IMG/VR virus record: IMGVR_UViG_3300045988_150584
Direction: 5' to 3' (one strand)
Length of the DNA stretch: 64,000 nucleotides
From: a virus
The translations under genes were made by a program, and so were the position numbers. The first letter of the stretch is position 1; each line of letters opens with the position of its first letter. Below are positions 1,624 to 48,574 of the stretch, one piece after another. The notes under the pieces were generated by a model that did not search any database, was not told the DNA's origin, and worked only from the letters and a program-made list of their open reading frames with translations.

Positions 1624-1685
1624 TTTACTTTTGAGAGAATCAGTAAAAGCAGCATCGCCACGAGCAGGCTTCTCTCCTGATGCCG

Positions 1686-2100
1686 TGGAGCAGAGGGGAA
1701 TTGAACCCCTGTCCGAAATTCCTACATGAACAAAACATTCTTACGCAATAGATAGCAATTTGCATTTTGTCATAAGACGAGCTGCTTGGTGCTATCAACC
1801 AACTCAGAGCCGCACCAGTCTTGCGACCTCCACCACCTTATTTCTTTTCACAGTAATAAGGAAAACTGCAATGTCAGCCTGATTCTTTATTACCGCAGAT
1901 GCTCACCCAGACTAAAAGTGCATCGTTTAGGCATCCATCAACTGCAATTAAGCAGCAATACCCTCCATAACAGCATACAGAGCGGGATGAATCATAACCA
2001 CAATAGAATCATTGTCATTTCATTTTTGTTTGAGCCTTAGGCGGTCTCCATGCCTGCGTATTTCGTCCTATCAAAACCCCGTCGAACCCATTACTGCCCC
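1686..2100 (-). ncRNA. ssrA: tmRNA (SsrA) embedded in the tRNA array
   Basis: - 5' end GGGGCAGTAATGGGTTCGACGGGG and 3' end GGGGTTCAATTCCCCTCTGCTCCA form a tRNA-like acceptor/T-arm.
- An internal A-rich region is followed by a tag-like ORF ending ..GAG GGT ATT GCT GCT TAA (..EGIAA*), with the stop at 1948-1950.
- The resume codon is not resolved. Confidence 0.85.
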
Positions 2101-2113
2101 ATATTTAATTTTG

Positions 2114-2190
2114 TGGTCGGAGTAGAAAGAGTCGAACTTTCGACCTCACGATTATCAGTCGTGCGCTCTACCTACTGAGCTATACTCCGA
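2114..2190 (-). tRNA. tRNA-Ile(GAU)
   Basis: TCGGAGTATAGCTCAGTAGGTAGAGC, anticodon arm CACGA-CTGATAA-TCGTG, T-loop AAGTTCGACTCTT. CCA is encoded. Confidence 0.9.
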
Positions 2191-2305
2191 GATAAAGCCA
2201 TGCGTCCGTAGAACCTCGTCTGCAGCCGATAGGTTTTTAGCTGGAATAGCAGTCAAGTAATGAGCTGAACCGCACAAACGCCAACATAACCAACATGGCA
2301 CGATC

Positions 2306-2381
2306 TGGTGGAAACAATGAGAATCGAACTCACGACCTCCTGCTTGCAAGGCAGGCGCTCTCCCAGCTGAGCTATGTCCCC
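2306..2381 (-). tRNA. tRNA-Ala(UGC)
   Basis: GGGGACATAGCTCAGCTGGGAGAGC, anticodon arm CCTGC-CTTGCAA-GCAGG. The G3-U70 identity pair is present. CCA is encoded. Confidence 0.9.
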
Positions 2382-2387
2382 ATGTAA

Positions 2388-2412
2388 CCGTCCTCTTTCG
2401 AGGACGGATTTT
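2388..2412. other. GC hairpin between CDS 2426-3232 and the tRNA array
   Basis: ccgtcctc-tttc-gaggacgg. The T-run lies on the plus-strand side only, so its role as terminator of the minus-strand gene is doubtful; it may be a processing site or a barrier. Confidence 0.4.
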
Positions 2413-2425
2413 ATTTGATTTGAGA

Positions 2426-3232
2426 TTAGGAGCTGAAAGCGGGGGCGAGGCCATAGGAATACCCGGCGTTGCCGGAGCCCGCGTAGCCGGTCGCGTACAC
2501 AAAGCAGAAGCCGGAGCTGTTGTTGTAGTACGGAGAACGCAACAGGTTACAGCGACGATTCCCGTCATCATCTTCCTTATAGTAAGGAACATCCTCCTGC
2601 TGATAGTATTCGTACCAATGTCCCTCGCCAGGCATCGAATAAAAACAGCGACCGTACAGTTCTTTCTCACTCTTGAGCCAAACCTTACAAATGCTCTTAA
2701 TAATTTCCTTGCTGCAATCGCCAGCGCTTGTAAGTTTAATAACCGGCTTAATAATTGCCTGCAATTCATCGGAACAAAGCGAGAAGAACTCCGTATCCAG
2801 CCTGCGTCTTACAACAGAAGCTTCATATCCGCCGCGATTCGTACTTTCGTCGTTCCACGACCAGTCCTCGTTATAAACTCTAACCATATCCCAAGAAAGA
2901 GGTGCTTTGCCAGTCCCATCTGCAAGATCATCATGATTAAATCCAATAATCTGCCATACAGCAACGAACCCATTCTTCATGTGGTCTTTCTTCTGTGCGC
3001 CAAGTGCAAACACATCACGCGCCTTACCAGACAATCCGATCTGATTGATTTCGTCCCAAGAAAGATGGTTCAAATCTTTCAAAGGCATCGCAAGCGGCGC
3101 TTTACAAACGGTCTCAACAATATGCTCACTCGTCGAACTATCATCGAAACTAAGAGTTACTGCATCGCCATCGCAAACGATATTCATTGCCGAAAACTTG
3201 CTAAGATCCTTTGTTGCAATTTTGAACTGCAT
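2426..3232 (-). CDS. hypothetical protein with a C-terminal ..LLRSPYY..G..YGLAPAF motif (DUF6273-like)
   Basis: ORF 2426..3241, with ATG (MQFKIATKD) preferred as start. The composition is protein-like, unlike the antisense 283-aa ORF. The C-terminal motif recalls Firmicutes surface and phage proteins. Confidence 0.6.
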   Translation of the reverse strand: MQFKIATKDLSKFSAMNIVCDGDAVTLSFDDSSTSEHIVETVCKAPLAMPLKDLNHLSWDEINQIGLSGKARDVFALGAQKKDHMKNGFVAVWQIIGFNHDDLADGTGKAPLSWDMVRVYNEDWSWNDESTNRGGYEASVVRRRLDTEFFSLCSDELQAIIKPVIKLTSAGDCSKEIIKSICKVWLKSEKELYGRCFYSMPGEGHWYEYYQQEDVPYYKEDDDGNRRCNLLRSPYYNNSSGFCFVYATGYAGSGNAGYSYGLAPAFSS

Positions 3233-3248
3233 AAAACACACCCCGTAA

Positions 3249-3270
3249 AAATTATTTTGCTAATTCCTTA
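3249..3270 (-). promoter_or_regulatory. class-B intercistronic motif copy
   Basis: Reads TAAGGAATTAGCAAAATAATTT on the minus strand, just upstream of CDS 2426-3232. Confidence 0.5.
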
Positions 3271-3913
3271 GAAAGAAAATTCAATACTTGAATCATACCT
3301 ATCATTGAGCCTTCGCTCTACCTCCATTACCTTCTCACAATGTTCAGCCACCAGGGAGATAAGTCTGAGCTTCAAGGAGCGACCTTTAACTTCTTACCCC
3401 AGCCTTACACAGCGAACTGTATTAGGCCAATTCCTGCGCGGGATTGTTTACCCGCAAATTTCACCGTTCGTTCAGAAAATTTGATAGTTTCATACAATTT
3501 CTTTTTCATCATATCGTATTAAAGATCAAACACCAAAACTGTCCTACGGCTACTTTAACCGGCGACTTTCGTTATAGTCGAGTTTCTTCGACATCAAGAC
3601 AGGAGCGCATTGTTGGCATTTCCTCCGGTTGTACTGGTTGCCACACCAGCATCCTTGAGGATTATTCTCCACAGGAGCGTCTATTGCTGCGCCCGAAAGT
3701 TCCGTGCTTTTTGTAGCGATAACTCTTGGCAACACACATTTTCGTTGGCGGTTTCTGCCTTCCAGCAATACATCGCTGCATTACTGCCGCCTGGACAATA
3801 AAAGGTATCCCTCGTAAATCCAGCGGGAACTACTGTGCGTCTCGGAGTGCTGACACACTTTATTCACCGAGTTAATCATAAGCATGATTCAAATATTGAA
3901 TTTTCAAAGATCA
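3271..3913 (-). ncRNA. candidate large structured non-coding RNA (~640 nt ORF-free, flanked by tRNA genes)
   Basis: - No credible ORF in any frame.
- Nested complementary segments on the minus strand, for example GGCGG..CAGC-gatgtatt-GCTG..CCGCC.
- Repeated GCTCCTGT and a GCAGCAAT core.
- Lies inside an RNA-gene cluster. The strand is assumed from context. Confidence 0.35.
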
Positions 3914-3989
3914 TGGAGCTGGCGACAGGACTTGAACCCGCAACCTGATGATTACAAATCACCTGCGCTACCAATTGTGCCACGCCAGC
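3914..3989 (-). tRNA. tRNA-Thr(UGU)
   Basis: Acceptor GCTGGCG/CGCCAGC, anticodon arm GGTGA-TTTGTAA-TCATC, T-arm GCGGG-TTCAAGT-CCTGT. CCA is encoded. Confidence 0.9.
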
Positions 3990-4051
3990 ATATTGTTTAG
4001 CTATGTCCTCTTGTCATTATTGAGTATAGCACATGGGCACATAGTTGTCAA

Positions 4052-4072
4052 TAGGAATTAGCAAAATAATTT
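4052..4072 (+). promoter_or_regulatory. class-B motif copy (no plus-strand gene downstream)
   Basis: TAGGAATTAGCAAAATAATTT, sharing a 20-nt identity with the copy at 61207-61228. Confidence 0.4.
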
Positions 4073-4081
4073 CAGATTTTT

Positions 4082-4157
4082 TGGTGGCTGAGGCTGGGCT
4101 TGAACCAGCGTCTCCGCTTTATGGGAGCGGCAAGAAAACCAGCTTCTCCACTCAGCC
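4082..4157 (-). tRNA. tRNA with CAU anticodon and C33 in the anticodon loop
   Basis: Acceptor GGCTGAG/CTCAGCC, D-arm GAGA..TCTT, anticodon arm CCGCT-CCCATAA-AGCGG (C where U33 is nearly universal), T-arm GCTGG-TTCAAGC-CCAGC. CCA is encoded. Confidence 0.75.
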
Positions 4158-4186
4158 AAATAGGGAGGGGCAAAAGCCCCGTCCCA
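4158..4186 (-). terminator. hairpin downstream of the HU gene
   Basis: Minus strand GGGACGGGGC-TTTT-GCCCCTCCC followed by TATTT. The T-tract is weak. Confidence 0.45.
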
Positions 4187-4189
4187 TAG

Positions 4190-4474
4190 TTACTCTCGAA
4201 TACTTCTTAAAAGTTCTGCTCCGGACTTAAATACGACATTCTGGAACTCTGGAACAACAATGCTTTCTTTCGTTACCGGATGAAGAGCAGGATGTGACTT
4301 GTACTTTTTCACATCAAATGTTCCAAACCCATAAATCGAAACGCGATCTCCATTTCTAAGAGCATTCGCAATTTCATCAAAAATATCGTCAACGATATCC
4401 TTGACCATGTACTTCTTATACGCCTTATTATTCTGAGCAAGCGTATTTACTAAATCTGCTTTATTGATATTCAT
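4190..4474 (-). CDS. HU/IHF-family DNA-binding protein
   Basis: 94 aa, MNINKADLV...SIYGFGTFDVKKYK..VVFKSG. The length is typical and the GFGxF arm motif is present. Confidence 0.9.
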   Translation of the reverse strand: MNINKADLVNTLAQNNKAYKKYMVKDIVDDIFDEIANALRNGDRVSIYGFGTFDVKKYKSHPALHPVTKESIVVPEFQNVVFKSGAELLRSIRE

Positions 4475-5709
4475 GCTAATTTATCGCTCCCTTGTGGGCG
4501 ATAACGAGTCGTATCAAAGTCAATATCGTAAAATGCTTTGACACCATTATAATCACAGACACAAACTAACTGCTGCTGCGCTCCGTAAATGCGCTTTCCA
4601 ACGCAGTAGTCATCCATACCAAGAAAGCTGCCGGCCATAATCGTTTTCACGCCTTGAACACTATCAGTCTTATTGTGATGTAAATGACCTGAAAGAATAG
4701 CGTACACCGGATCTTTTGCCATTGTCTGAAGCGATTGAACTTTCCCAGCAGATCCATCATAATCGCCATGCACACCAAGATAAGTCTTGCCGCGAATATC
4801 AAGCAGATACATCGTATCGTCGATCTTTCTATAATGATCAAACGATACATTCTCGAAAGCTTGTAAACGAGCTTTCAAATACCACTCAACTAAATCGTCA
4901 AGACGCTCATGGATTGAAGCAACATCTTTCTCTTCAAGCCGAGAATGATTTCCAGCAACAGAAGAAAAGTAAACATTCTTAAAGTGATGGCTTAATGTAG
5001 ACAAAAACTCCGCAAGAAGTTCAGATACTCCAACGACCTGTTGAATGACATTTTCTCTGTTCGACACGGCAATAGACTTATGGATATTTCCGCTAATCAA
5101 GTCTCCGTTTGCCCATACATAGCAATTCTCCGCTCCATGCAAAGCGGCAATTTCAAAGATGCGATCCAGATATTCATTAAGAAGCTGCACGCAAACATCA
5201 GAATTATAGTAATTCCAATAATTGTCTACACACGCTCCAAAATGCAAATCATTTAAGCTCACAAGCAAATCGTTTCCGCTTGGTTCAATTACACATGGCA
5301 CATAATCCAACCGTGGAATTACGCCAGAAGTAATTGCCCTCTCAAAAATATCAGAGTTTTCATCCTTGCGAGCCAAGTCGCGCACAACTTTATTAAGAGC
5401 GTTTCTCTGATCAAAAAACCGTTGGCGTTCTTTCTTAAATTCAAGCATCTTCTGCTCAATCTCATCAAGATATGCACTTCCGAGATCCTGCGTTGCCTTC
5501 TGCTTGAAGTATTTCATCACATGATAGCCAGAATACGGTGTTACATTCGCGGCTTTACGAAGACTATCGTAATGGACATCAAGCCCAAGCAGATCAACAA
5601 TATCTGACCATTCTAAGTCAGAAGGGTTCTGCTCAACCTTAATCTCAATCAGCCGTAGGCCATACTCATAATTGTCTTCATTTTCAAGCTGTTTATATTT
5701 TGGATTCAA
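4471..5709 (-). CDS. calcineurin-like metallophosphoesterase (SbcD/Mre11-like nuclease candidate)
   Basis: Motifs DLHFG, GDLISG, GNHS and GHLHH occur in the canonical order. Confidence 0.8.
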   Translation of the reverse strand: MNPKYKQLENEDNYEYGLRLIEIKVEQNPSDLEWSDIVDLLGLDVHYDSLRKAANVTPYSGYHVMKYFKQKATQDLGSAYLDEIEQKMLEFKKERQRFFDQRNALNKVVRDLARKDENSDIFERAITSGVIPRLDYVPCVIEPSGNDLLVSLNDLHFGACVDNYWNYYNSDVCVQLLNEYLDRIFEIAALHGAENCYVWANGDLISGNIHKSIAVSNRENVIQQVVGVSELLAEFLSTLSHHFKNVYFSSVAGNHSRLEEKDVASIHERLDDLVEWYLKARLQAFENVSFDHYRKIDDTMYLLDIRGKTYLGVHGDYDGSAGKVQSLQTMAKDPVYAILSGHLHHNKTDSVQGVKTIMAGSFLGMDDYCVGKRIYGAQQQLVCVCDYNGVKAFYDIDFDTTRYRPQGSDKLA

Positions 5710-5909
5710 TATTCATCCCTCCCATCATCGGGCGGCAACTGAATACTGCGGCGAATTGTCAGAGTAACGCCAACAACGCCGTCCCAGCGTTTTAACAGCT
5801 CTAAGAGGCTGTATGTTCTTACGGAATCAGTATCATATTCTGTGATTGTCATATCACTGGTGTCAATTATGGCATTTTCAAAGCTTTCGCTTTTAACCAC
5901 CATTGACAT
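5706..5909 (-). CDS. hypothetical protein
   Basis: Internal ATG (MSMVVKS..) is preceded by GAGGAAAG. It overlaps the stop of the upstream gene. Confidence 0.5.
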   Translation of the reverse strand: MSMVVKSESFENAIIDTSDMTITEYDTDSVRTYSLLELLKRWDGVVGVTLTIRRSIQLPPDDGRDEY

Positions 5910-6144
5910 TATGCTTTCCTCGCTGCTGAATGATTCGCTTGCGACGAATCTCACGCTCTCGATCAATCCGTGCAACAATTTCGGCGGCGAGATGGTTTGT
6001 ACTCGCAATCGCCCTCATGTTTCCTTCACTCTCTGTTGCGTAGTAATGATGCCGCTTTGAATCCTGCATCATTGTTCGCGTTACCTTGTACTCAGGATAC
6101 AATTCTCTGAGAATACGCGCTTCTTCCTTAGTTACTGGAATCAT
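5893..6144 (-). CDS. hypothetical protein
   Basis: 83-aa ORF, the first gene after the 6145-6436 control region. Confidence 0.5.
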   Translation of the reverse strand: MIPVTKEEARILRELYPEYKVTRTMMQDSKRHHYYATESEGNMRAIASTNHLAAEIVARIDREREIRRKRIIQQRGKHNVNGG

Positions 6145-6274
6145 ATAAAGTCTTCATTCCTTTTCAAAAAAGATGTCTGGGCTGCGGATATCGCACCGCA
6201 GCCATAGACAGGAGAATCCCGAATAGATTAGTAAATACGGTTTTCTTCCCTTAAAGGTCTTTTTCTTTTTGGTT

Positions 6275-6307
6275 GCAAATACTCCGTTGAACAACGGGTA
6301 TTTCGTT
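6275..6307. promoter_or_regulatory. 33-bp direct repeat copy 1 containing a CGTTG-AA-CAACG palindrome
   Basis: gcaaatactccgttgaacaacgggtatttcgtt, repeated at 6342-6374 with one mismatch. Confidence 0.6.
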
Positions 6308-6341
6308 ATATTTGCCAAGCATTATTTGGCATATTTGATAG

Positions 6342-6374
6342 GCAAATACTCCGTTGAACAACGGGTGTTTCGTT
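6342..6374. promoter_or_regulatory. 33-bp direct repeat copy 2 containing a CGTTG-AA-CAACG palindrome
   Basis: gcaaatactccgttgaacaacgggtgtttcgtt. Confidence 0.6.
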
Positions 6375-6411
6375 TTATCAGACTTCAAAATAAAACATGG
6401 GGACATTTTGT

Positions 6412-6431
6412 GCTGTTTAGCTAATTCCTAA
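6412..6431 (-). promoter_or_regulatory. class-B motif copy
   Basis: TTAGGAATTAGCTAAACAGC on the minus strand, directly after the stop of the 898-aa gene. Confidence 0.5.
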
Positions 6432-6436
6432 CAACA

Positions 6437-9133
6437 TCATGCGACGCTCCGCTGACGTCGTTTCTTCTCACGCTCATAATTGCGAATATGGATAGCCTGA
6501 CAGTCATTGCAGCGTTTCTTGTTCTTCACGATGCCGTCTACCTCAAACTCTTTTCCGCAATCAATACACCGCAATTTCTTTTTGCCGAGTGGATGATATC
6601 CAGAGCAATTCGTACACACTTTCTGCTGCGGGGAAAGCGGAACGAAACGCTCTCCGCATTTTTTGCACTGAATAGAGCCATCTGGAATATTTCGCTTGAG
6701 ATTCTCCAGAACGATATCGCCAAAGCACATCCAAAAAACATTTTTCCTACGACTATTCTTGCTATGAAATAGATATTTCACAAGAATGTCGCAAACATCC
6801 AAACGCTCAAGGCCAAGCTCATCGAATTGCTTCAAGATATTATCCCGAATATACGCAAAGTTCGAGTCATCGTCATAAAAGCTAATTGAATAACGATACT
6901 GTTTTTCCACATCATTATACAAATCCGTCACAGGTAATAAAAGTTCAATCTGTTTCATCGGATTACTAAGCATATACTGATATCTGAAGACACCAATATT
7001 CTTCGCGGCAAAAGACATCCGCTTATTAGGGACGATATGTTCAAGCTGGTTTACAACACTATTGTTCGTTCGCTGAACCTGAGATTTTGTTTTCTTTTTA
7101 GCGTGGATAAAAAAATGCGGTGCTTTCATGCTTGTAATTCTCGCAAGACGAGCATTGATTTCATCTGGTCGAGTTGGCTTATACAATGTCTTGGCATAGT
7201 CGATACAAAAGTTGTTCTCCATACAAAGGATTTTAATTGCTTCTATATCAACATCCGCACCGTTCCAAATCTTCGTAATATCATTACTAATAACACCGAT
7301 ATTACCGCCAGTCCATGCGGCGCGAAGCCCTTTGAAGATTTCCTCTGGTGTAATCGTAACAGCGCCGGCTTTTGCCATTTCGTAATATAAAGGAACAACC
7401 CCTTCCATATTGCGCTCAGCAATAGCCACGAGTAAGGAATCTGCGCATACAAGACTTTTATCTCCATCGCAATCAAATTGCAGGATCTTTGAAATTAAGT
7501 CATGGCAGCTCGTATAGATAGCATTTTGAGAAAACCACTTTTTCGTTGCGCTGGTAACAACATTTTTACGAATAGCATGTTCACGATATAGGTGCGGTGA
7601 GCGTAGACAGTCCAATTTACTTACCGTGCGATAAAGGTAACAAGATACCTCTCCATCTGCAAGCAGACCAACAGGACTGCGATTTCCAAGAAACAGCCAT
7701 TCACAAAAAGCATAGAGATCCGGAATCAAGAACATATACTTTGCGCTTAAATCAATCTTTGCCGCTCTCGCCTCAGTAACAAGATTCTTCTTGATTTGCC
7801 GTAGCATCTCTTTTGTGTACGGATCGGAAAGTAATTCCGGATAGATACTAAGACACTCCTGAAAAGCATTCTTATTGCGATACTGTGTAGAAGCTCCGAA
7901 CACATCAAGCATGGTATTCTTATCCGATGCAATTTTAGCAATTTTGTCAATCGTCTTTCCCGCGAGCTGTTCAAGTTCATCGGGACTCAAATCCGTAAGA
8001 GTCTGAAGCATTTGGTAGTTAAGCTTTGCGTCAGGGATAAAATCCTCTTCCTCATTACACTTACCGACAGTGCAGCCATTCGCCAAAAACAAATCAATGT
8101 ATTCCTGCCAACTCGTGTAATACTTGTACATCTTAAATTGACTTTTCGTAAAAATGACCTGAATATCCTCCGCGATTACATCATGTTCAAACCCATAGAT
8201 ATCTGTTACCAAACCATGATTTACAGACGGATCGCGTTCGTTTGCTTCCGAAATAAACTTATCAAACGGGAATACGGCAAGAAGCCCTTTTACCCAAGGA
8301 AGACGAACCATAGTATTCTTTGCATTACAAGAGGGAAGAACCATTCCACAACCATCCGTATGTGTAATCGGAATTTCCATGTCCCTACGCTCTACACTGT
8401 ATGTTTTGTGATCAATAAAATCAACAGTTCCACGAACCATTGTTTCCATATCATCCACAACGATGGTCTTTCTGATATCGAAATCTTCCCACAAATCAGT
8501 TGCGCTATTACACAGTGCAAGATACGCCAGGTACTTATTGATATTGATTCCGCCAAGCTCGTTGATTTTTTGAACGCTCAGTCCACACATAATGGTTTTT
8601 TGATACTTCTCCCAAACTCTTTCCTTAATGAAAACTGTTTTCTTTGTTCTGATCTGCCCAGCAGATGCCGTAAAACAAATATAACGCTCTCCGTTAAAGG
8701 TATATCCGTTTAGGATGAGATCTTCAATTACATCAAAATAATATGTGCGAATAACCATGAAATCGTCATACAGTTTTCCTGTTTCCATGCCGAGTGTTCT
8801 TGTAAGCATCGACTCAAAAACAGAAATCACATTCTTATCAACCACATATTCAGTTCGTAACTCGCGCTGCGAACGGTGTGCTTGAAGAAGCGATACAAGC
8901 TCAGACTTCTTAATCTTAATCATTTGGTTTGTACCACGAATTTCTTTCGCAATCTGTTTTACACGGGAATTATCCATCGCAACAGGAATCGGATCTGACT
9001 TTCCCATGCCATACAATTTACGAAACTGAGACTCAGCTTTCTCCCTGGCTATTTCTCCAGCACATAGCTGCTTAATAATTTCTCGCTCTGATTTTAATTT
9101 CGATTTTGAAGAACAATGCTTATTGATCTCCAC
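6437..9133 (-). CDS. YonO / RdRP-like two-barrel single-subunit RNA polymerase candidate with C-terminal Zn-ribbons
   Basis: - 898 aa, with motifs in the order seen in eukaryotic RdRPs and phage YonO-type enzymes.
- YICFTASAGQIRTKK (SxSQLR-like), THTDGCGMVLPS (DGxGxxS), VRLPWVKGLL (RxxxxKGxL), CLRSPHLYREH (RxPxxH) and QFDCDGDKS (DxDGD metal-binding loop).
- Four CxxC pairs at the C-terminus.
- The GTG start at 9133 is uncertain. The frame stays open and protein-like up to an AAGGAG-N9-ATT at 9211. Confidence 0.7.
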   Translation of the reverse strand: MEINKHCSSKSKLKSEREIIKQLCAGEIAREKAESQFRKLYGMGKSDPIPVAMDNSRVKQIAKEIRGTNQMIKIKKSELVSLLQAHRSQRELRTEYVVDKNVISVFESMLTRTLGMETGKLYDDFMVIRTYYFDVIEDLILNGYTFNGERYICFTASAGQIRTKKTVFIKERVWEKYQKTIMCGLSVQKINELGGININKYLAYLALCNSATDLWEDFDIRKTIVVDDMETMVRGTVDFIDHKTYSVERRDMEIPITHTDGCGMVLPSCNAKNTMVRLPWVKGLLAVFPFDKFISEANERDPSVNHGLVTDIYGFEHDVIAEDIQVIFTKSQFKMYKYYTSWQEYIDLFLANGCTVGKCNEEEDFIPDAKLNYQMLQTLTDLSPDELEQLAGKTIDKIAKIASDKNTMLDVFGASTQYRNKNAFQECLSIYPELLSDPYTKEMLRQIKKNLVTEARAAKIDLSAKYMFLIPDLYAFCEWLFLGNRSPVGLLADGEVSCYLYRTVSKLDCLRSPHLYREHAIRKNVVTSATKKWFSQNAIYTSCHDLISKILQFDCDGDKSLVCADSLLVAIAERNMEGVVPLYYEMAKAGAVTITPEEIFKGLRAAWTGGNIGVISNDITKIWNGADVDIEAIKILCMENNFCIDYAKTLYKPTRPDEINARLARITSMKAPHFFIHAKKKTKSQVQRTNNSVVNQLEHIVPNKRMSFAAKNIGVFRYQYMLSNPMKQIELLLPVTDLYNDVEKQYRYSISFYDDDSNFAYIRDNILKQFDELGLERLDVCDILVKYLFHSKNSRRKNVFWMCFGDIVLENLKRNIPDGSIQCKKCGERFVPLSPQQKVCTNCSGYHPLGKKKLRCIDCGKEFEVDGIVKNKKRCNDCQAIHIRNYEREKKRRQRSVA

Positions 9134-16833: not shown

Positions 16834-17580
16834 TCACCCTACGAAATCCTGGTCTGAGACCACATTGATGCACATGTTTTTGTAGAGAGCTTTGTCCTCT
16901 TCATCGGTAATGCCAAGGTAACGCAAAGTCACTTCTGGAGAACTATGCCCAAATGCTCTTTGTAACATGGTGATGTCCAAATTTGCTTTTTCGCTATTGT
17001 ACTTGTATTGATGCCATCCCCATGTCTTACGGCAGGTATGAGTCCCGATATTCTGCTTCAATCCGCAAGCTGCCGCTGCTTCTTTCAGAACCTTACGGAA
17101 AGTACCGACCTGAATAGCACCACCTTCTCTTGATGGAAAAAGATATCCTTCTGAGTGTAGATACGCACCTTTGATTGGAAATGCCCACTCAAGAGCATCC
17201 TTACAAGCAGCATTCAGAAAAACAGTTCTATGCTTCTTTGTTTTGCTCTGGTAGATGTCGATTCCGTCTGAGGTATCTTCTTCATCCTCAATCAGCCTTA
17301 CAGAACCATCAGGAGAGAATACCTGGTTCATCTTCAAATCCAAAAGTTCATTTGCTCTTAATCCGAGATTGATGCCTAAGGTGAATGCAAGTACATACTT
17401 GTTATTCTTATGCTCGTACAACCAATTCGCCATAGCAATAATATCCTTATGAGTCTTGATAGGATATACGGTTTGACGTTCACCAGTCTTGCAGTTGTTG
17501 GGTTTCTTCTTGCCAAGTAGCTTCTCAATCTCTGGGTGTAAGGTGATTTGTAGGATCGTACCTTCGGTAGACTGAGTCAT
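16834..17580 (-). CDS. tyrosine recombinase / phage integrase
   Basis: GINLGLRANELLDLK (box I Arg), HTCRKTWG (HxxR), GHSSPEVTLRYLG (catalytic Tyr region). The start MTQSTEG follows AAGGAG. Confidence 0.9.
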   Translation of the reverse strand: MTQSTEGTILQITLHPEIEKLLGKKKPNNCKTGERQTVYPIKTHKDIIAMANWLYEHKNNKYVLAFTLGINLGLRANELLDLKMNQVFSPDGSVRLIEDEEDTSDGIDIYQSKTKKHRTVFLNAACKDALEWAFPIKGAYLHSEGYLFPSREGGAIQVGTFRKVLKEAAAACGLKQNIGTHTCRKTWGWHQYKYNSEKANLDITMLQRAFGHSSPEVTLRYLGITDEEDKALYKNMCINVVSDQDFVG

Positions 17581-17596
17581 ATTCATCACTCCTTGC

Positions 17597-17617
17597 ATAT
17601 TGTTTAGCTAATTCTTT
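17597..17617 (-). promoter_or_regulatory. class-B motif copy immediately 5' of the integrase RBS
   Basis: AAAGAATTAGCTAAACAATAT followed by GCAAGGAG. Confidence 0.5.
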
Positions 17618-17623
17618 AGAAGC

Positions 17624-17645
17624 AGAAAAAGCGTTGTTCAACGAA
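17624..17645. promoter_or_regulatory. CGTTG-TT-CAACG palindrome upstream of the integrase
   Basis: aaaagcgttgttcaacgaacaa. Confidence 0.5.
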
Positions 17646-17706
17646 CAATCTTTACATAAGATATTATACCACAAATCGGTCTGAAGTCAATAAAAATCGG
17701 AAAGAA

Positions 17707-17727
17707 AATATTGTTTAGTCAATTCCG
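17707..17727 (-). promoter_or_regulatory. class-B motif copy (variant)
   Basis: CGGAATTGACTAAACAATATT. Confidence 0.4.
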
Positions 17728-17751
17728 TTCATTTGCAAATTCGATAGAAAT

Positions 17752-18050
17752 GCGTTGATTAAGGCATATTCCGTAGCATAAAATTATAAAAATGTATTTT
17801 TATGTGTTGATCTAAAGACGAAGATCCAGCGTTGATTAAGGCATTCTTCCGAAGACAAGTCTGTAGCAGAAGATATTTATATTTGTAAGGGAATATATCG
17901 TTGATGAACGGTGTGTTTGAGAGATGGTGTTTGGTGAAAAAGATAGAGGCGTGGAGAAGAGGGTACAAAGCCAAATTTTTGGCGTTGCTAAAGTCGTGAA
18001 AATGTAAACCCACCCCCCCTATGCAGATAGCAAAATAGGCGTTGATCTCC
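17752..18050. repeat. iteron array (five GCGTTGAT-type repeats), putative replication origin or regulator binding array
   Basis: gcgttgattaaggcat at 17752 and 17829, tcgttgatgaacgg at 17898, gcgttgcta at 17982, gcgttgatctcc at 39-50 of 18xxx (18039). Spacing is 55-85 bp in a non-coding region. Confidence 0.55.
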
Positions 18051-18120
18051 GTTAGTTCCGCATACTCCACAAAAGCGGAATCGAAAAAGGCGGTGTTTCT
18101 GCTGCCGTTCATGTCTGCCG

Positions 18121-18545
18121 GTGCGGGGCTGGCTCTGGCGGTTGATCTGCTGGGCGTTCGGTGAGACGGGGAGAAAAGCGGCGTTTTACTGTCGTTTTCT
18201 CTTCGTTCCCTCTCTTTTTCCGCTCTTCTTCTCTCTGTCTCTGCCCGTCTCCGCTCATGGTCTACAGTGCCGCGCTTCTGGCTCTTCTGGCTCTGGCTCG
18301 ATCTCTGCGGCTCTGGTGGGGCTGGTTGTCTGCTGGCGGTCTTGTCTCCGCTGCTGCCGTGCTGGCTCTGGTTCTTCTGGCGTGTCCGCTTCTGGGCTTG
18401 ATCTCTGGGCGGCTCTGCCGTTGGTGCTGTCTCCGTGTCTCTCTCCGTCTGTCTCCGCTTTGGGGCTGGTGCTTCGTCCGCTCTGGTGCTGTCTGGGCGT
18501 GTCCAGGCGTTCCCGTGTCCAGTGCTGCGGCTCTGGTGGGGCTGG
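18121..18545. other. strand-asymmetric, nearly A-free (plus strand) GT/C-rich tract
   Basis: By manual count there are only 8 A in 18181-18540 (360 nt). Motifs GGCTCTGG, CTGGTGGGGCTGG and TCTCCG recur. All six frames are open simply because stop codons cannot form. Confidence 0.8.
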
Positions 18546-18681
18546 CGCTGGGAGACGATGCAGGCCAAAAGGATATGGCATAATGCACAATTCTGTAAGG
18601 CTGTATTTGTATGATGTGCTAATAGCATATTGCACAAAAAGATGCTGTTTTTAGCTTGCTATTTTTACATTTTGTCAAGGT

Positions 18682-18701
18682 GTTATTTAGCTATTTCCTA
18701 T
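18682..18701 (-). promoter_or_regulatory. class-B-like element abutting a sigma70-type promoter
   Basis: Plus strand gttatttagctatttcctat. It pairs with the near-identical arrangement at 37789-37836. Confidence 0.45.
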
Positions 18702-18729
18702 TGCAAATTCCGCTTTTGTGTGGTATAAT
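18701..18729 (+). promoter_or_regulatory. sigma70-like promoter for the rightward block
   Basis: TTGCAA-17 nt-TATAAT with a TGg extended -10. Confidence 0.6.
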
Positions 18730-18790
18730 CCTTAATGTAAGGTAAAGGAAACGAGATCGACGGCGGCGGGTGCGCCGCTGCTGGACGATC

Positions 18791-18812
18791 TAAGGAAGTA
18801 GTTAAATAATAT
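18791..18812 (+). promoter_or_regulatory. class-B motif copy directly 5' of an RBS
   Basis: TAAGGAAGTAGTTAAATAATAT followed by GGAGG. Confidence 0.5.
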
Positions 18813-18825
18813 GGAGGTAAACATC

Positions 18826-19173
18826 ATGAATAAGCTGTCCGCCCTCGTCCCTCTGAAAAGCAAGATCACCGTCTACGTTCCCGCTACGGTATCCGTAGAT
18901 CAGGAGATCGACAACGCCGCATACATTGAGCGCGTCGCGCGTACTCTGTCCGCCTGTTTCGGTGGTGCTACGGCTTCGCCGGTTCGCGGTTATTGGGTCT
19001 CCGATTCTGGCGAGCTGGTGAAAGAATCTACAACGATGGTTTTTGCGTACTGCTCCACGGCTGACGCTGAAAAGTATATTGATGATGTCGTTTCCCTCTG
19101 CTACGAGCTGAAGCGCGAAATGGGGCAAGAAGCGATTGCCCTTGAATACAACGGCGAAATGTATTTCATCTGA
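18826..19173 (+). CDS. hypothetical protein
   Basis: MNKLSALVPLKS.., GGAGG 8 nt upstream. A GC-rich hairpin follows at 19186-19214. Confidence 0.6.
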   Translation: MNKLSALVPLKSKITVYVPATVSVDQEIDNAAYIERVARTLSACFGGATASPVRGYWVSDSGELVKESTTMVFAYCSTADAEKYIDDVVSLCYELKREMGQEAIALEYNGEMYFI

Positions 19174-41841: not shown

Positions 41842-41952
41842 GCAGAGGTAGCTCAGTCGGTAGAGCATCAGACAAAAAATGTGCTAAGCATTAGCGCTAA
41901 CAGCAATGTTAAAGGAATCCGAGTGTCGGAGGTTCAAGTCCTCCCCTCTGCG
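41842..41952 (+). ncRNA. tRNA gene P4 with a ~38-nt insertion in the anticodon loop (body Phe/Lys-like)
   Basis: - Perfect acceptor GCAGAGG/CCTCTGC.
- Canonical D-arm TAGCTCAGTCGGTAGAGC and T-arm GGAGG-TTCAAGT-CCTCC.
- Anticodon stem TCAGA/TCCGA encloses CAAAAAATGTGCTAAGCATTAGCGCTAACAGCAATGTTAAAGGAA. Confidence 0.6.
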
Positions 41953-42183: not shown

Positions 42184-42298
42184 GCCAGGGTAGCTCAATC
42201 GGTAGAGCGCGTAATAACGCGACTTGTTAAGCCGCTTGCAGCAAATTTCTTTTGGTCTGTTAAACCCGTGGTTGCAGGTTCGATTCCTGCCCCTGGCT
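42184..42298 (+). ncRNA. tRNA gene P5 (Asn-like CTGTTAA loop) with a ~44-nt insertion between the D-arm and the anticodon region
   Basis: Acceptor GCCAGGG/CCCTGGC, D-arm TAGCTCAATCGGTAGAGC, T-arm GCAGG-TTCGATT-CCTGC. The insertion carries GCAGCAAAT, and only a 3-bp GGT/ACC stem flanks CTGTTAA. Confidence 0.5.
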
Positions 42299-42384: not shown

Positions 42385-42502
42385 ACGGCAGTGGTGAAGC
42401 GGTAACACAGCAGCCATACAAATGCGAAAAGTGGATTTTCGCTAACAGCTATTTCACAATCCAAGCTGCCAATCGTAGGTTCGATTCCTACCTGCCGTTC
42501 CA
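42385..42502 (+). ncRNA. tRNA gene P6 with a ~43-nt insertion in the anticodon loop
   Basis: Perfect acceptor ACGGCAG/CTGCCGT. Anticodon stem GCAGC/GCTGC encloses CATACAAATGCGAAAAGTGGATTTTCGCTAACAGCTATTTCACAATCCAA. T-arm GTAGG-TTCGATT-CCTAC. CCA is encoded. Confidence 0.6.
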
Positions 42503-42626: not shown

Positions 42627-42691
42627 GCCCCTCCTTTAAGACACAGACAGCATCGAATGTGAAATGGTGTCTTGAAGGCTATTTCAAACAA

Positions 42692-42712
42692 AAAGAAATT
42701 AGTTAAACAATT
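42692..42712 (+). promoter_or_regulatory. class-B motif copy directly 5' of an RBS
   Basis: AAAGAAATTAGTTAAACAATT followed by CAAGGAGG. Confidence 0.5.
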
Positions 42713-42728
42713 CAAGGAGGAAGAAAGT

Positions 42729-44273
42729 ATGAATGGTTTTATGTCTGCTATGAAAAGCACTTTGAACGATGAGTTCAATGTTTCTGTTACCGAAAACGGT
42801 GCTGTTGGCTATCGTACTACCGGCAAGGAACTATTGGATCTCAACTTTGCCGTTGCATCTCTTCGTAAGGCATCTCCGAGCGATATTGCAAACCGCTTCG
42901 TCAGAGCGTTTTTCGAGGATAAGATTACGGCAATGAAATGGCTGTTCTTTGCGCGTGATGTTCGTGGTGGTCTTGGCGAGCGTCGTTTGTTCCGCATCGT
43001 GTTTCAGCGTATGGCGGAGGAAAATCCGGAATACATCATTCCGCTGATTTCCCTTGTGCCTGAGTATGGACGCTATGACGATTTGTGGTGTTTGCTCGAT
43101 ACAAAGCTTGCACCTAATGTGCTGAACATCATTGCGCAGCAGCTCCGCGATGACATTCAGAATTTGAGCGATGGCAATAGTATTTCTCTTCTCGCAAAGT
43201 GGCTTCCGTCTGCGAATGCTCATTCCGCTGACGCAAAGCGTTATGCTAAGCAGATCTACAAGTTTATGGGCATTTCTGAGCGCGACTACCGTAAGGTGCT
43301 GTCCAAGCTGCGTTCTAAGCTGGATATCGTGGAGAAGAAAATGTCCGAAAAGCGTTGGGATGAGATTGCGTATGAAGCTGTCCCGTCTCGTGCAAATCTG
43401 ATTTACAACTCCGCATTCCTTCGTAACGACGAAGATCGCCGCCGCGATTTCCTGTCCCGTTTGGAAAAGGGCGAAACGAAAATCAATGCGTCTACGCTTT
43501 TCCCGCATGACATTGTTGCAAAGTATAGCGATGGCTGGCGTGGCCTGAAGCCTACGGATAAAACACTGGAAGCTCTTTGGAACGCACTTCCCGATACCGT
43601 AAACGGATGCGGCAATACCATCGTCGTTGCGGATGGCAGCGGCAGTATGACCGTGAATGTCGGTGGCAGCAATGTTACCGCACTGGCTGTTGCAAATGCA
43701 CTTGCGATTTATTTCGCAGAGCGTTCCTCTGGTCAGTTCAAGGACAATTACATTACATTTTCTGAGCATCCTCAGCTCGTCGATTTGAGTAAGGGCAAGA
43801 ATCTCCGCGAGAAGATTCAGATTGCGCTTAAACACAGCGAGGTAGCAAACACAAATATCGAAGCGGTGTTTGACCTTATCTTGACTACGGCAAAGAAAAA
43901 CAACATGGGACAGAGCGATCTTCCTGCAAATATCCTTATTATCTCCGATATGGAGTTTGACTACTGCGCAACATCGAATGGTGGAAGCAGATATAATCGT
44001 GGTCGCGTTGATTCTCGTCTGTTTGACAAGATTGCAAAGCGCTATGAGGATGCTGGGTATAAACTGCCAAGGCTCGTGTTCTGGAACGTGAATAGCCGCA
44101 CGAATACCATCCCTATTAAGGAAAACGAGATGGGAGTTGCGCTTGTAAGCGGTTTTAGTCCGAACATCGCAAAGATGGTGATGAGTGGTCAAACTGATCC
44201 GTATGAGTGTCTGCTTGAAACGCTGAACTCTGATCGCTATAAGCCTATCGGTGACGCTCTGGAAAATCAGTAA
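42729..44273 (+). CDS. DUF2828-family protein with a vWA/MIDAS-like domain
   Basis: N-terminus VTENGAVGYRTTGKELLDLNF.., GRYDDLW, and VVADGSGSM (DxSxS MIDAS-like). 514 aa. Family recalled from memory of plant and phage DUF2828 proteins. Confidence 0.65.
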   Translation: MNGFMSAMKSTLNDEFNVSVTENGAVGYRTTGKELLDLNFAVASLRKASPSDIANRFVRAFFEDKITAMKWLFFARDVRGGLGERRLFRIVFQRMAEENPEYIIPLISLVPEYGRYDDLWCLLDTKLAPNVLNIIAQQLRDDIQNLSDGNSISLLAKWLPSANAHSADAKRYAKQIYKFMGISERDYRKVLSKLRSKLDIVEKKMSEKRWDEIAYEAVPSRANLIYNSAFLRNDEDRRRDFLSRLEKGETKINASTLFPHDIVAKYSDGWRGLKPTDKTLEALWNALPDTVNGCGNTIVVADGSGSMTVNVGGSNVTALAVANALAIYFAERSSGQFKDNYITFSEHPQLVDLSKGKNLREKIQIALKHSEVANTNIEAVFDLILTTAKKNNMGQSDLPANILIISDMEFDYCATSNGGSRYNRGRVDSRLFDKIAKRYEDAGYKLPRLVFWNVNSRTNTIPIKENEMGVALVSGFSPNIAKMVMSGQTDPYECLLETLNSDRYKPIGDALENQ

Positions 44274-44656: not shown

Positions 44657-44967
44657 TGCCAGATGTTGTTATGACGAATCATAGTGTGAAGCGAACAAAA
44701 GAAAGAATTGGACTAAGCAAGAAAATCGCAGATAAGAACGCGCAGAGAGCGCTTGAATACGGTGTTACGCACTCTGAGGCAAAAGGTGGCTTATGTCGGT
44801 ATCTTGATAAACTGTATCTGTCGAATGGTAATGCAAATAATGTTCGCGTTTATCACAGATATGTATATCTCTTTCGTGGGAACACGCTTTTGACAATCAT
44901 TCCATTACCAAACAAATTCTATGCTCTGGCGGACAAACTTCAAAAGCAGAAAGGCGAAATAGAATGA
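44656..44967 (+). CDS. hypothetical protein
   Basis: 103 aa, with a start/stop overlap. Confidence 0.5.
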   Translation: MPDVVMTNHSVKRTKERIGLSKKIADKNAQRALEYGVTHSEAKGGLCRYLDKLYLSNGNANNVRVYHRYVYLFRGNTLLTIIPLPNKFYALADKLQKQKGEIE

Positions 44968-45920
44968 GAATTGTAAAAACACATACTGGAAAAATTTATG
45001 TTGATAAGGATAAGAAACTGGAATTTTTAACGGTTGGCGACTATGGCAAGGAAAACAATATTAAAGCAAGTTTTCTTGGTTTGAACAAAGAAATCAACGG
45101 TGTTCAACATCATACGGTTGACCTGGCGGATAAGTGGGTTGCTACTATCAGCACTCAGAAAGGTTGTCCGATGAATTGCCAGTTTTGTGATTGCCCGAAG
45201 TATGGATTTCACGGAAATGTATCTCGTGAGGAACTGGCTTATGAAATTGAGACAATTCTTGCAAACGAACGAGTAACACATACTAATCGTTTCAATGTTC
45301 ACTTTGCTCGCATGGGTGAGCCTACATTCAACGATGCCGTTCTTCCGTTTGCTGAATTTGATTTGAAGCCGCTGGTTAAGCGGTTTATTACGGCAGATAC
45401 AATTCATCCTGTTGTTTCAACTATGCTTCCGAAAGCAAATGCCAATTTGAAGTCATTCATCATGGAATGGTGTCGCATTAAGAACAGTGTGTACAGTGGA
45501 GAAGCTGGTCTGCAATTTAGCATCAATTCGACGAATCAGGCGCAGCGTAATGAACAGTTTAACGGAAAGAGCTTATCCTTATCAGAAATTTCAAGTCTCG
45601 CATCTAAGCTTCCTACGCCGGTCGGTAGAAAATACACATTGAATTTTGCGGTAACGGCTGACACGATTTTGGATGCGGTGGAGCTTGGGAAGCTGTTCGA
45701 TAAGGAAAAGTTTATCGTAAAAATTACGCCGATTCACCAGACAAATGCAGCCATTAAGAATGGATTTGATGTGACCACGGAATATACTGACTACGATGTT
45801 TACCGCAAGTTTGAAGATCCACTTGTTGCTGCTGGATGGGATGTCATTGTGTTCGTACCGAGCGAGGAAGAAGATAGCGACCGTATTACTTGCGGGAATG
45901 CCTTAATTTCAGATAAGTGA
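44964..45920 (+). CDS. RlmN/Cfr-like radical SAM RNA methyltransferase
   Basis: STQKGCPMNCQFCDCP (CxxxCxxC), FARMGEPTFN (MGMGEP-like), and C-terminal DRITCGNAL (second catalytic Cys, CGQL-like). Confidence 0.65.
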   Translation: MRIVKTHTGKIYVDKDKKLEFLTVGDYGKENNIKASFLGLNKEINGVQHHTVDLADKWVATISTQKGCPMNCQFCDCPKYGFHGNVSREELAYEIETILANERVTHTNRFNVHFARMGEPTFNDAVLPFAEFDLKPLVKRFITADTIHPVVSTMLPKANANLKSFIMEWCRIKNSVYSGEAGLQFSINSTNQAQRNEQFNGKSLSLSEISSLASKLPTPVGRKYTLNFAVTADTILDAVELGKLFDKEKFIVKITPIHQTNAAIKNGFDVTTEYTDYDVYRKFEDPLVAAGWDVIVFVPSEEEDSDRITCGNALISDK

Positions 45921-47494: not shown

Positions 47495-48574
47495 GTGATT
47501 AAGAAGGTTGATCGGAAAAATCGGTTTGTAGCAATGTTTAATCCTACAACTGGCTTCTATGCTCGTAGTGGTGTGATTGATGAGAATGGGCATGACACCG
47601 GCGTAGATCCGTTTATGACAGCATTCCCAGAGCTGATTGATGTCGGTGTGATGGGTCATTGTGTCCACGGAGCAAGCGGTCTTTGCTTTAAGTCTGGCGT
47701 TCAGTGTTATCAGAACGGACTAAAGACAAAAGAACCAAATATGACGCTTGAAAATTTCAAACGCATTGTTGATGAATGTAGGGGTAAAACATTCCAGCTC
47801 GCGCTTGGTGGTCGTGGTGATGTTGACCAGCACGAAAATTTTGCTGAGATTTTGCAGTATTGCAGGGAAAACAATATCGTGCCGAATTTCACTTCTTCAG
47901 GGCTTGGCTTTACAGATGAGATTGTAGATCTGTGTAAAAGATACTGTGGTGCAGTAGCAATCTCCTGGTATCGCCAGAAGCATACATACCGTGCGATTCA
48001 GATGCTTTTGGATGCTGGCGTAAAAACGAACATTCATTATGTTCTTGGAAACAATTCCATTGAAGAAGCAATTATGCGGCTAAAAAATAATGGTTTTCCT
48101 GCTGGCATTAACGCAGTGATTTTCCTTCTTCACAAACCCGTTGGACTCGGCAGCGAAGAGAATGTTTTGCAGATGGATAACCCGCTCGTAAGACAGTTCT
48201 TTGAGATTGTGGATATGCAGAAATTCAATTTCAAAATTGGCTTCGATTCATGTTCTATTCCAGCCGTTTTGAATCTGACTCACAATATCGACCACGATAG
48301 TATTGATACTTGCGAGGGCGGCAGATGGAGCATGTATATCACAAGCGACATGAAAGCTTTGCCCTGTAGTTTCGATAATCAAGAGCTGCGTTGGGCATTT
48401 GATATTAGCAATTCCAGTATCGAAGAAGCTTGGAATAGTCCGCAGTTTGAAAGATTTAGAAGTCATTTCAGAAATTCTTGCCCGAATTGTCAGTGCCAAC
48501 ACGCTTGTATGGGCGGTTGTCCGATTCGTCCGCAAGTAGTTTTGTGCGATAGGGCGGAAAAGGAGCTGTATTAA
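47495..48574 (+). CDS. radical SAM/SPASM-like protein with an atypical N-terminal Cys pattern
   Basis: C-terminal CPNCQCQHACMGGCP is SPASM-like. The N-terminal GHCVHGASGLCFKSGVQCY is not the canonical CxxxCxxC. GTG start after AAGGAGGG. Confidence 0.5.
   Translation: MIKKVDRKNRFVAMFNPTTGFYARSGVIDENGHDTGVDPFMTAFPELIDVGVMGHCVHGASGLCFKSGVQCYQNGLKTKEPNMTLENFKRIVDECRGKTFQLALGGRGDVDQHENFAEILQYCRENNIVPNFTSSGLGFTDEIVDLCKRYCGAVAISWYRQKHTYRAIQMLLDAGVKTNIHYVLGNNSIEEAIMRLKNNGFPAGINAVIFLLHKPVGLGSEENVLQMDNPLVRQFFEIVDMQKFNFKIGFDSCSIPAVLNLTHNIDHDSIDTCEGGRWSMYITSDMKALPCSFDNQELRWAFDISNSSIEEAWNSPQFERFRSHFRNSCPNCQCQHACMGGCPIRPQVVLCDRAEKELY

Follow-up and report, generated by a model that had tools for sequence, protein, structure and literature searches.

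The 64,000-nucleotide (nt) stretch of viral DNA deposited as IMG/VR record IMGVR_UViG_3300045988_150584 (hereafter ‘the window’) carries, on its minus strand between positions 3278 and 3905, what is almost certainly a gene for the ROOL RNA (Rfam family RF03087). Our best overall explanation of the locus, in which as a whole we have high confidence, is that this RNA is probably co-transcribed with the tRNAs of a phage, excised from the shared precursor and likely to self-assemble into a cage. When the whole window is scanned against Rfam 15 at gathering thresholds, ROOL is the sole large RNA to be matched: the hit spans 608 nt (3288–3895, minus strand) and reaches 400 bits, where the gathering cut-off is 99.1, at an E-value of 2.6e-92, or 4e-94 when the 1-kb region is searched alone. 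The match runs untruncated over model positions 1–574 of 574, with the P1-closed architecture complete; at 608 nt, or 628 nt with its closing stalk, the RNA compares with a family mean of 581 nt. An original prediction, made from the letters of the sequence, had proposed a large structured non-coding RNA between 3271 and 3913, and had offered ROOL, GOLLD or a new class as its possible identity. The first of these guesses was borne out by the full-length match in cmsearch with the Rfam models, and the proposed boundaries are nearly exact if the stalk-extended element is counted; the sequence is a new individual member, and a new clade, of ROOL, and not a new kind of RNA.

The interval is bounded on one side by a gene for tRNA-Thr(UGU) (3914–3989, minus strand) and on the other by a minus-strand open reading frame (ORF) starting at 3241. 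Its description as free of genuine ORFs stands, in that the longest within it, of 90 amino acids (aa) on the plus strand and 72 aa on the minus strand, both with TTG starts, are mechanical only; in relatives with 74–78% nucleotide identity, stop codons or changes of frame break up each of them. These two ORFs are what a reading of the interval as coding for small proteins would have to build on, whilst another class of large RNA, known or new, might be entertained given that GOLLD is likewise found in tRNA islands and in phages. Rescanning the neighbourhood (3100–4100) against Rfam with permissive filters and E ≤ 1, we recovered ROOL, tRNA-Thr and one extra match, to the snoRNA SNORD97 (20.4 bits, E 0.89), which we discarded as chance; GOLLD, OLE, RNase P and the group I and group II introns gave no match at gathering score in the window, nor at E ≤ 1 in this neighbourhood. 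The suggestion of GOLLD therefore falls, that of a new class finds no support, and we give virtually no credence to either another RNA class or small proteins.

Relatives were fetched with a degenerate 15-base pattern taken from a conserved ROOL motif, giving 120 viral contigs (loci with ‘L’ numbers below); by a rough estimate, a pattern of this kind can match such a collection by chance, and blastn finds a match to the window ROOL in 71 of the 120. All 36 loci scanned with Rfam carry a ROOL, the complete copies scoring 290–406 bits and two that are cut by the locus ends 197 and 294 bits. One locus (L069, IMGVR_UViG_3300045988_150831) is 100% identical over the ROOL and two more are 99.5–99.8% identical; beyond these, there is a clade of about ten loci at 74–79% identity, with further clades at 47–55%.

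For the minus strand of 3278–3905 the folding energy is −207.5 kcal/mol, with z = −5.7 relative to shuffled sequences, as compared with −161.1 kcal/mol (z = −2.6) for the plus strand, in agreement with the original view of the minus strand as rich in structure. As aligned to the model, 129 of the 153 consensus pairs are canonical, and most of the remainder become so with a shift in register of 1 nt in one long-range helix, after which GUUAUC pairs cleanly with GGUAAU, UACAA with UUGUG and AGC with GCU; the weak look of this helix in the window is thus a 1-nt slip of the model alignment. Projecting the 153-pair structure from the window’s model alignment onto a MAFFT alignment of 28 sequences, we see standard pairs in 75.6% of cells versus 59.0% in column shuffles, a level that none of 500 shuffles reaches; with the 3′ partners slid by 1–3 columns, pairing falls to 37–48% (maximum 47.8%). 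Both sides have changed in 119 of the 153 pairs, and the fold is kept among aligned relatives that span 47–99% identity, with compensatory substitutions maintaining pairs even within the window’s own clade at 74–79% identity; the comparison with relatives that had been put forward as a check on the RNA therefore comes out in its favour. Together, the full-length score, the compensatory changes and a conserved promoter upstream (see below) make it very unlikely that the locus is a decaying or silent ROOL remnant, in effect an untranscribed spacer; such a remnant would fit with the lack of a predicted terminator after ROOL, but its 400 bits sit at the upper end of the range found for complete relatives.

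The motifs conserved in ROOL are also present in the window copy: the GGAUAC loop, CAAUAGACG, the GAAA tetraloop, UAUAAC and AAGUAGCC, along with UCUGAA, GGUGAAA, GGUAAGAAG and GCUCAGACUU. Part of the CAAUAGACG stretch, among the most conserved in ROOL, is invariant across all 28 relatives, and the ‘core’ singled out in the original prediction, GCAGCAAT (3683–3690), continues directly into it. Two other features noted at that stage fared less well. The string GGCGG..CAGC-N8-GCTG..CCGCC does occur, once, at 3747–3791 and in none of 100 shuffles, but its interpretation as nested helices is only partly right, the consensus here forming two adjacent hairpins (GGCAGUAAUGCA-GCGA-UGUAUUGCUGG and GGCAG-AAA-CCGCC). 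Likewise, the repeated GCTCCTGT is present as two minus-strand copies (3599–3606 and 3671–3678), but this number is within chance (37 of 100 shuffles of the 64 kb) and the copies sit in unrelated parts of the fold; we therefore reject the repeat as meaningful.

The RNA is closed by a nearly perfect P1 stalk of ∼32 bp, in which duplexfold pairs GAAAAUUCAAUAUUUGAAUCAUGCUUAUGAUUA (5′ strand, 3905–3874) with CAAUGAUAGGUAUGAUUCAAGUAUUGAAUUUUC (3′ strand, 3306–3278), and which also closes the unconstrained minimum free energy (MFE) fold. In this lineage P1 goes 10 bp past both ends of the match to Rfam: positions 1–6 of the model, which the consensus leaves unpaired, are paired in the window, as are ten more nt on each side. 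Stalks of equal length, with sequences that differ on both strands, are found in L012, L035, L042, L104 and L110, and it is this persistence of length through changes on both strands that leads us to regard the stalk as being under selection. In ROOLs that directly abut tRNAs (the group of L120, L064 and L103) the P1 helix is shorter. The stalks of rRNA operons, where the flanks of 16S and 23S rRNA come together as RNase III sites, offer a parallel: a long, near-perfect duplex of 5′ and 3′ flanks enclosing a large structured RNA that is co-transcribed (in the case of ROOL, probably so) with tRNAs. This is an analogy only, the long stalk being absent from ROOLs abutting tRNAs directly, and RNase III-type processing of the stalk is in our view possible but, on balance, doubtful.

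From the end of tRNA-Thr it is 8 nt to the P1 stalk and 18 nt to the Rfam match. Some 30 nt upstream of the tRNA gene (4051–4023) there is a sigma-70-like promoter, the best such site in the first 6 kb, of which alignment shows the −35 hexamer (TTGACA) and, within the −10, the core TATA to be conserved in L035, L092, L112 and L125, the last being the chromosome of Clostridiales bacterium CCNA10 described below. Of the 17 closest loci that are complete (picked by similarity only, several being near-duplicates of one another), 14 have tRNA-Thr 18–25 nt before ROOL, and the CCNA10 chromosome also has this tRNA ahead of its ROOL. In other ROOL clades the tRNAs that touch or run into the match at its 5′ end are those for Met, Trp, Asn, Gln, Ser, Ile and others; tRNAs adjoin or overlap its 3′ end as well, another one often beginning 0–40 nt away. 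An upstream tRNA is seen in 30 of 34 Rfam-confirmed loci, a figure biased by a second batch chosen partly for having tRNAs; across all pattern-matched loci, the counts of 44 of 103 upstream and 47 of 102 downstream are diluted by likely chance matches to the pattern. The adjacency of tRNA-Thr, the conserved promoter and the tRNA-flanked ROOLs of other clades thus lend support to co-transcription with tRNAs and to release by tRNA-end maturation; judged from sequence, the window ROOL probably shares its transcript with tRNA-Thr, as was proposed for ROOLs and tRNAs earlier by Weinberg et al. 2017 (PMC5737381).

On the other side of ROOL, the ORF encoding a DUF6273 protein starts 47 nt past the Rfam match; the two share a strand and no terminator is predicted to separate them, an arrangement that would suit a long structured 5′ leader regulating this gene (3241–2426). 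There is, though, no room for the ORF in L042, L104, L092 or L072, where the next tRNA follows 39–117 nt after ROOL; ROOLs of other clades are flanked by tRNAs on both sides; and DUF6273 carries no known function in Pfam. A leader is accordingly a very improbable reading, and the ORF seems to have been inserted into the RNA island. In the gap between this ORF and tRNA-Ala there is also a GC-rich palindromic hairpin, CCGTCCTCTTTCGAGGACGG (2388–2407), that is terminator-like on the plus strand only.

Returning to ROOL as an RNA in its own right, the structure of ROOL env-120 (PDB: 9MDS; Kretsch et al. 2025, PMC12286853) is a closed D4 homo-octamer, 280 Å across, with the variable linker disordered inside the cage; the residues of its bridges B1–B6 are listed in Supplementary Table 2 of that work. 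We recovered 650 of the 659 nt of env-120 from the text of the Supplementary Table 4 PDF (9 nt being lost), and mapped the bridges onto the window copy (Table 1). The B4 inter-subunit kissing loop, formed from four Watson–Crick pairs and called highly conserved (PMC12286853), has a clear equivalent, in which the complementarity covaries across clades: GGCA:UGCC in the window, GGUA:UACC in env-120, GAGA:UCUC in the L120 clade and GGU:ACC in L042, providing independent support for selection on the quaternary contact. The B2 loop is nearly invariant among relatives (A309 G310 A311 A312 A313) and B5 and B6 have counterparts also, the conservation of L18 (B6) among the fetched loci being partly forced, as the search pattern contained this motif. 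For B1, a UCAG in the loop of the P2a hairpin and a CUGA just 3′ of the linker are candidates for a similar contact (3850–3853 with 3472–3475); B1-type pairs covary in other clades, as GUCAU:AUGAC, AUCAU:AUGAU and CCAU:AUGG. By homology, then, the window ROOL is likely to assemble into a cage.

Table 1. Coordinates of ROOL, its predicted contact elements and neighbouring features in the window.
Feature	Positions	Strand	Basis or remark
ROOL, full RF03087 match	3288..3895	-	Covariance model, 400 bits
ROOL with lineage-specific P1 extension	3278..3905	-	duplexfold; MFE fold
AU-rich variable linker, ∼ROOL nt 352–418	3478..3544	-	Insert relative to model; unalignable among relatives (columns ∼460–530)
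B4 5′ partner, hairpin-loop GGCA, ROOL nt 254–257	3639..3642	-	Equivalent to env-120 G307–A310 (GGUA)
B4 3′ partner, UGCC, ROOL nt 278–281	3615..3618	-	Complementary to GGCA 3639–3642
B2 GAAA tetraloop, ROOL nt 310–313	3583..3586	-	Counterpart of loop whose A366 docks on neighbouring chain
B5 A-rich loop, GUAAACAAU	3443..3451	-	Residue mapping from env-120
B6 loop UCGCU, ROOL nt 514–518, self-complementary GC	3378..3382	-	Equivalent to L18, between half-shells
B1 candidate, UCAG in P2a hairpin loop, ROOL nt 43–46	3850..3853	-	Possible partner of CUGA 3472–3475
B1 candidate partner, CUGA inside UCUGAA just 3′ of linker, ROOL nt 421–424	3472..3475	-	T420–A425 invariant
tRNA-Thr(UGU), encoded CCA	3914..3989	-	tRNA gene search and Rfam
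Sigma-70-like promoter TTGACA-17 nt-TATACT, TG before −10, 11/12 matches	4023..4051	-	Consensus scan
ATTTTGCTAATTCCT copy abutting −35 of tRNA-Thr promoter	4053..4067	-	Motif scan
DUF6273 ORF	2426..3241	-	Pfam; between ROOL and tRNA-Ala, start 47 nt past Rfam match
YonO-type single-subunit RNA polymerase, 898 aa	6437..9133	-	phrog_8308; Pfam RdRP

The window copy resembles the known ROOL RNAs in its full match to the model, similar size, shared motifs, AU-rich linker and setting in the tRNA island of a phage or prophage, as well as in its B4 complementarity and its B2, B5 and B6 elements. It differs in being only ∼43% identical to env-120 (as aligned to the imperfect text copy), in a P1 that is 10 bp longer than the ends of the Rfam match, in a minimal P7 that makes B3 doubtful, in the shifted register of B1 and in its host, the window belonging to Clostridia of gut or rumen-type samples and to an element that is SPbeta-like and encodes an RNA polymerase of the YonO type. 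GOLLD offers a second comparison, being another large, ornate RNA of phages and prophages that lies beside tRNAs and forms an RNA-only cage (in this case a 14-mer) with a disordered internal linker; its sequence and secondary structure are, however, unrelated, and whereas the GOLLD linker sometimes holds tRNAs, a tRNA gene search of the window places none within the ROOL linker (3478–3544).

Putting these elements together, we propose that tRNA-Thr and ROOL would be transcribed from the promoter at 4051–4023, perhaps with a contribution of read-through from the upstream tRNA-Met, and that ROOL would be freed from the precursor at maturation of the 3′ end of tRNA-Thr. A cut within the ∼32-bp stalk, the length and perfection of which would fit a site for a double-strand-specific enzyme of the RNase III type, may also occur and is the weakest step of the scheme. 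The RNA would then fold into the ROOL architecture, as the model match and covariation show, and eight copies would probably assemble, without protein, into a closed D4 cage like that of env-120.

Several points weigh against this scheme. The promoter is a consensus match, and 13 such sites are found in 6 kb where 11.6 are expected, though it is the best of them and is conserved; the terminator scan finds no terminator-like site after ROOL on the minus strand, leaving the 3′ end of the transcript undefined; and the argument for RNase III is helix length, when those ROOLs that abut tRNAs have shorter P1 helices. With respect to the cage, residues of env-120 were mapped by regional offsets (∼100 listed residues) together with a MAFFT alignment, and not by structural alignment; the 4-bp UCAG:CUGA pairing proposed for B1 is shifted in register from the AAUC:GAUU of env-120; and the B3 ‘daisy chain’, which runs from the P7 loop to the P7 bulge of the next chain, is unrecognisable in the window ROOL, whose P7 hairpin has just 4 bp and lacks a bulge (GCUCC-UGU-GGAG). 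P7 is not always conserved in ROOL (PMC12286853). Finally, the biological role that we discuss below is a guess from context.

The lack of a clearly recoverable B1 and B3 could also be taken to mean that ROOL, whilst real, is active as a monomer or in a complex with protein, for example as a ribozyme or a scaffold, the env-120 cage not being the active form. In keeping with this, the size and conservation of ROOL were held, before any structure was available, to suggest sophisticated biochemistry (PMC5737381), and no cage is reported in vivo in the ROOL literature that we examined. Set against this, the env-120 octamer persists at 12.5–50 nM and at temperatures of up to 55°C (PMC12286853), the covariation of B4 between subunits would be difficult to account for unless the contact were selected, and in the loci examined ROOL has tRNAs as its neighbours and no protein gene as a regular companion. 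We therefore think a monomeric or protein-bound active form improbable, and continue to favour assembly into a cage.

As for the element that carries it, 15 tRNA genes and a transfer-messenger RNA (tmRNA), all on the minus strand, lie between 79 and 4157. The 898-aa YonO-type polymerase is 47% identical to those of SPbeta and phi3T and 51% identical to that of Clostridium phage D-1873, and other large ORFs of the window match phage families (PHROG). A scan of one genome per species finds ROOLs of the window’s clade in Coprococcus, Lachnospiraceae, Oscillospiraceae and Hominifimenecus, all of them Clostridia. The closest relative comes from the cultured Clostridiales bacterium CCNA10, whose chromosome is completely sequenced, with a ROOL that is 78% identical, 70.6% identity to window positions 1981–8851 and the identical order of tRNA-Met, tRNA-Thr, ROOL, ORF, tRNA-Ala and tRNA-Ile. 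On the basis of the polymerase, the matches to phage families, the ROOL relatives in Clostridia and the synteny with CCNA10, we assign the element, from its sequence, to a temperate phage or prophage that is SPbeta-like and infects Clostridia of the gut. Searches of 50,697 GenBank phage records (distant-mode blastn of the region and megablast of 20 kb of the surrounding genome) returned no match, so that no sequenced phage isolate is close at the level of DNA.

Other features of this setting were seen in passing. The tmRNA (1683–2100, minus strand, 86.7 bits) sits inside the tRNA array; the tag peptide that ARAGORN assigns to it, AVDGCLNDALLVWVSICGNKESG, is atypical and may be mis-called. A tmRNA is also found downstream of ROOL in L035, L050, L087, L092, L099, L102, L104, L042 and L005. 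In two distantly related contigs with a ROOL, a RAGATH-21 RNA (87–90 bits) precedes it by a few hundred nt (L049, 3488–3563, minus strand; L103, 7836–7912, minus strand). Further along the window, GC skew changes sign at ∼17000–19000, where there is a local rise in GC to 52%, and the strand that carries most of the long ORFs switches from minus on the left to plus on the right.

The sequence ATTTTGCTAATTCCT, a copy of which at 3254–3268 is most likely what the original prediction had called a ‘class-B motif’ at the edge of the interval, is repeated between the genes of the window, with 18 matches at ≤3 mismatches versus 4.0 expected (a number reached in none of 100 shuffles). Copies are located at 3254–3268 (plus strand), 4053–4067 (minus strand), 6415, 12724, 15103, 17602, 18685, 35885, 37792, 38879, 61209 and elsewhere. 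Three of these, at 4053, 18685 and 37792, adjoin the −35 of strong sigma-70-like promoters, the first being that of tRNA-Thr, where the motif is conserved in L035, L112 and L125 (CCNA10) and has one mismatch in L050 and L092; most of the other copies are reversed (AGGAATTAGCtAAAc-AAT-ATG) and come just before gene starts. The motif might serve as an operator, as part of a promoter or as a leader. Two copies form part of a perfect 20-nt inverted repeat (3249–3268, plus strand; 4053–4072, minus strand) that flanks tRNA-Thr and ROOL, and which we considered as a cassette boundary or second processing stalk; as relatives have either lost the downstream copy or carry a diverged one, and the motif is common between genes, we rejected this idea, the repeat being probably incidental.

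On the plus strand, ∼38–50 kb from ROOL, are an RNA-ligase-like gene and a candidate Ro/Y-RNA-like module. The latter comprises three tandem tRNA-like elements, in each of which a 44-nt insert replaces the anticodon loop (41842–41952, 42184–42298 and 42385–42499), which are found by the Rfam tRNA model (48–52 bits) and not by ARAGORN, and, directly after them, an ORF (42672–44273) for a 533-aa DUF2828/DUF7788/vWA protein, annotated in PHROG as ‘RNA-binding protein’. We take this pairing to resemble a Ro-like protein with tRNA-mimicking Y RNAs, as in bacterial Ro60 and YrlA. The same arm holds, at 52491–53930, 44964–45920 and 47495–48574 (plus strand), the RNA-ligase-like gene (phrog_968; weak Pfam RNA_ligase) and radical SAM/SPASM genes, which could be a set for RNA repair or modification.

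What the cage might do we can suggest only tentatively: it may be an accessory phage RNA that, by enclosing or sequestering a macromolecule, helps or shields the tRNAs and the translation machinery while infection proceeds. A bolder and frankly improbable extension would have tRNA-Thr and ROOL as one processing cassette, excised by host tRNA-maturation enzymes and RNase III, with the cage working alongside the phage tRNAs, the tmRNA, the RNA-ligase-like gene and the Ro/Y-RNA-like module to counter those defences of the host that work by cleaving tRNAs or stalling translation, for instance by sheltering phage tRNAs or by trapping a host nuclease or ribosomal component.

Beyond the promoter–tRNA-Thr–ROOL unit, its stalk, the covariation of B4 and the cultured relative, what we describe is routine annotation. 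ROOL is, nonetheless, among the very few natural RNAs reported to form a closed, protein-free cage; the conserved unit, with its long stalk, makes the biogenesis of such an RNA directly testable, and the syntenic copy in cultured CCNA10 provides a genetic system in which to address its function.

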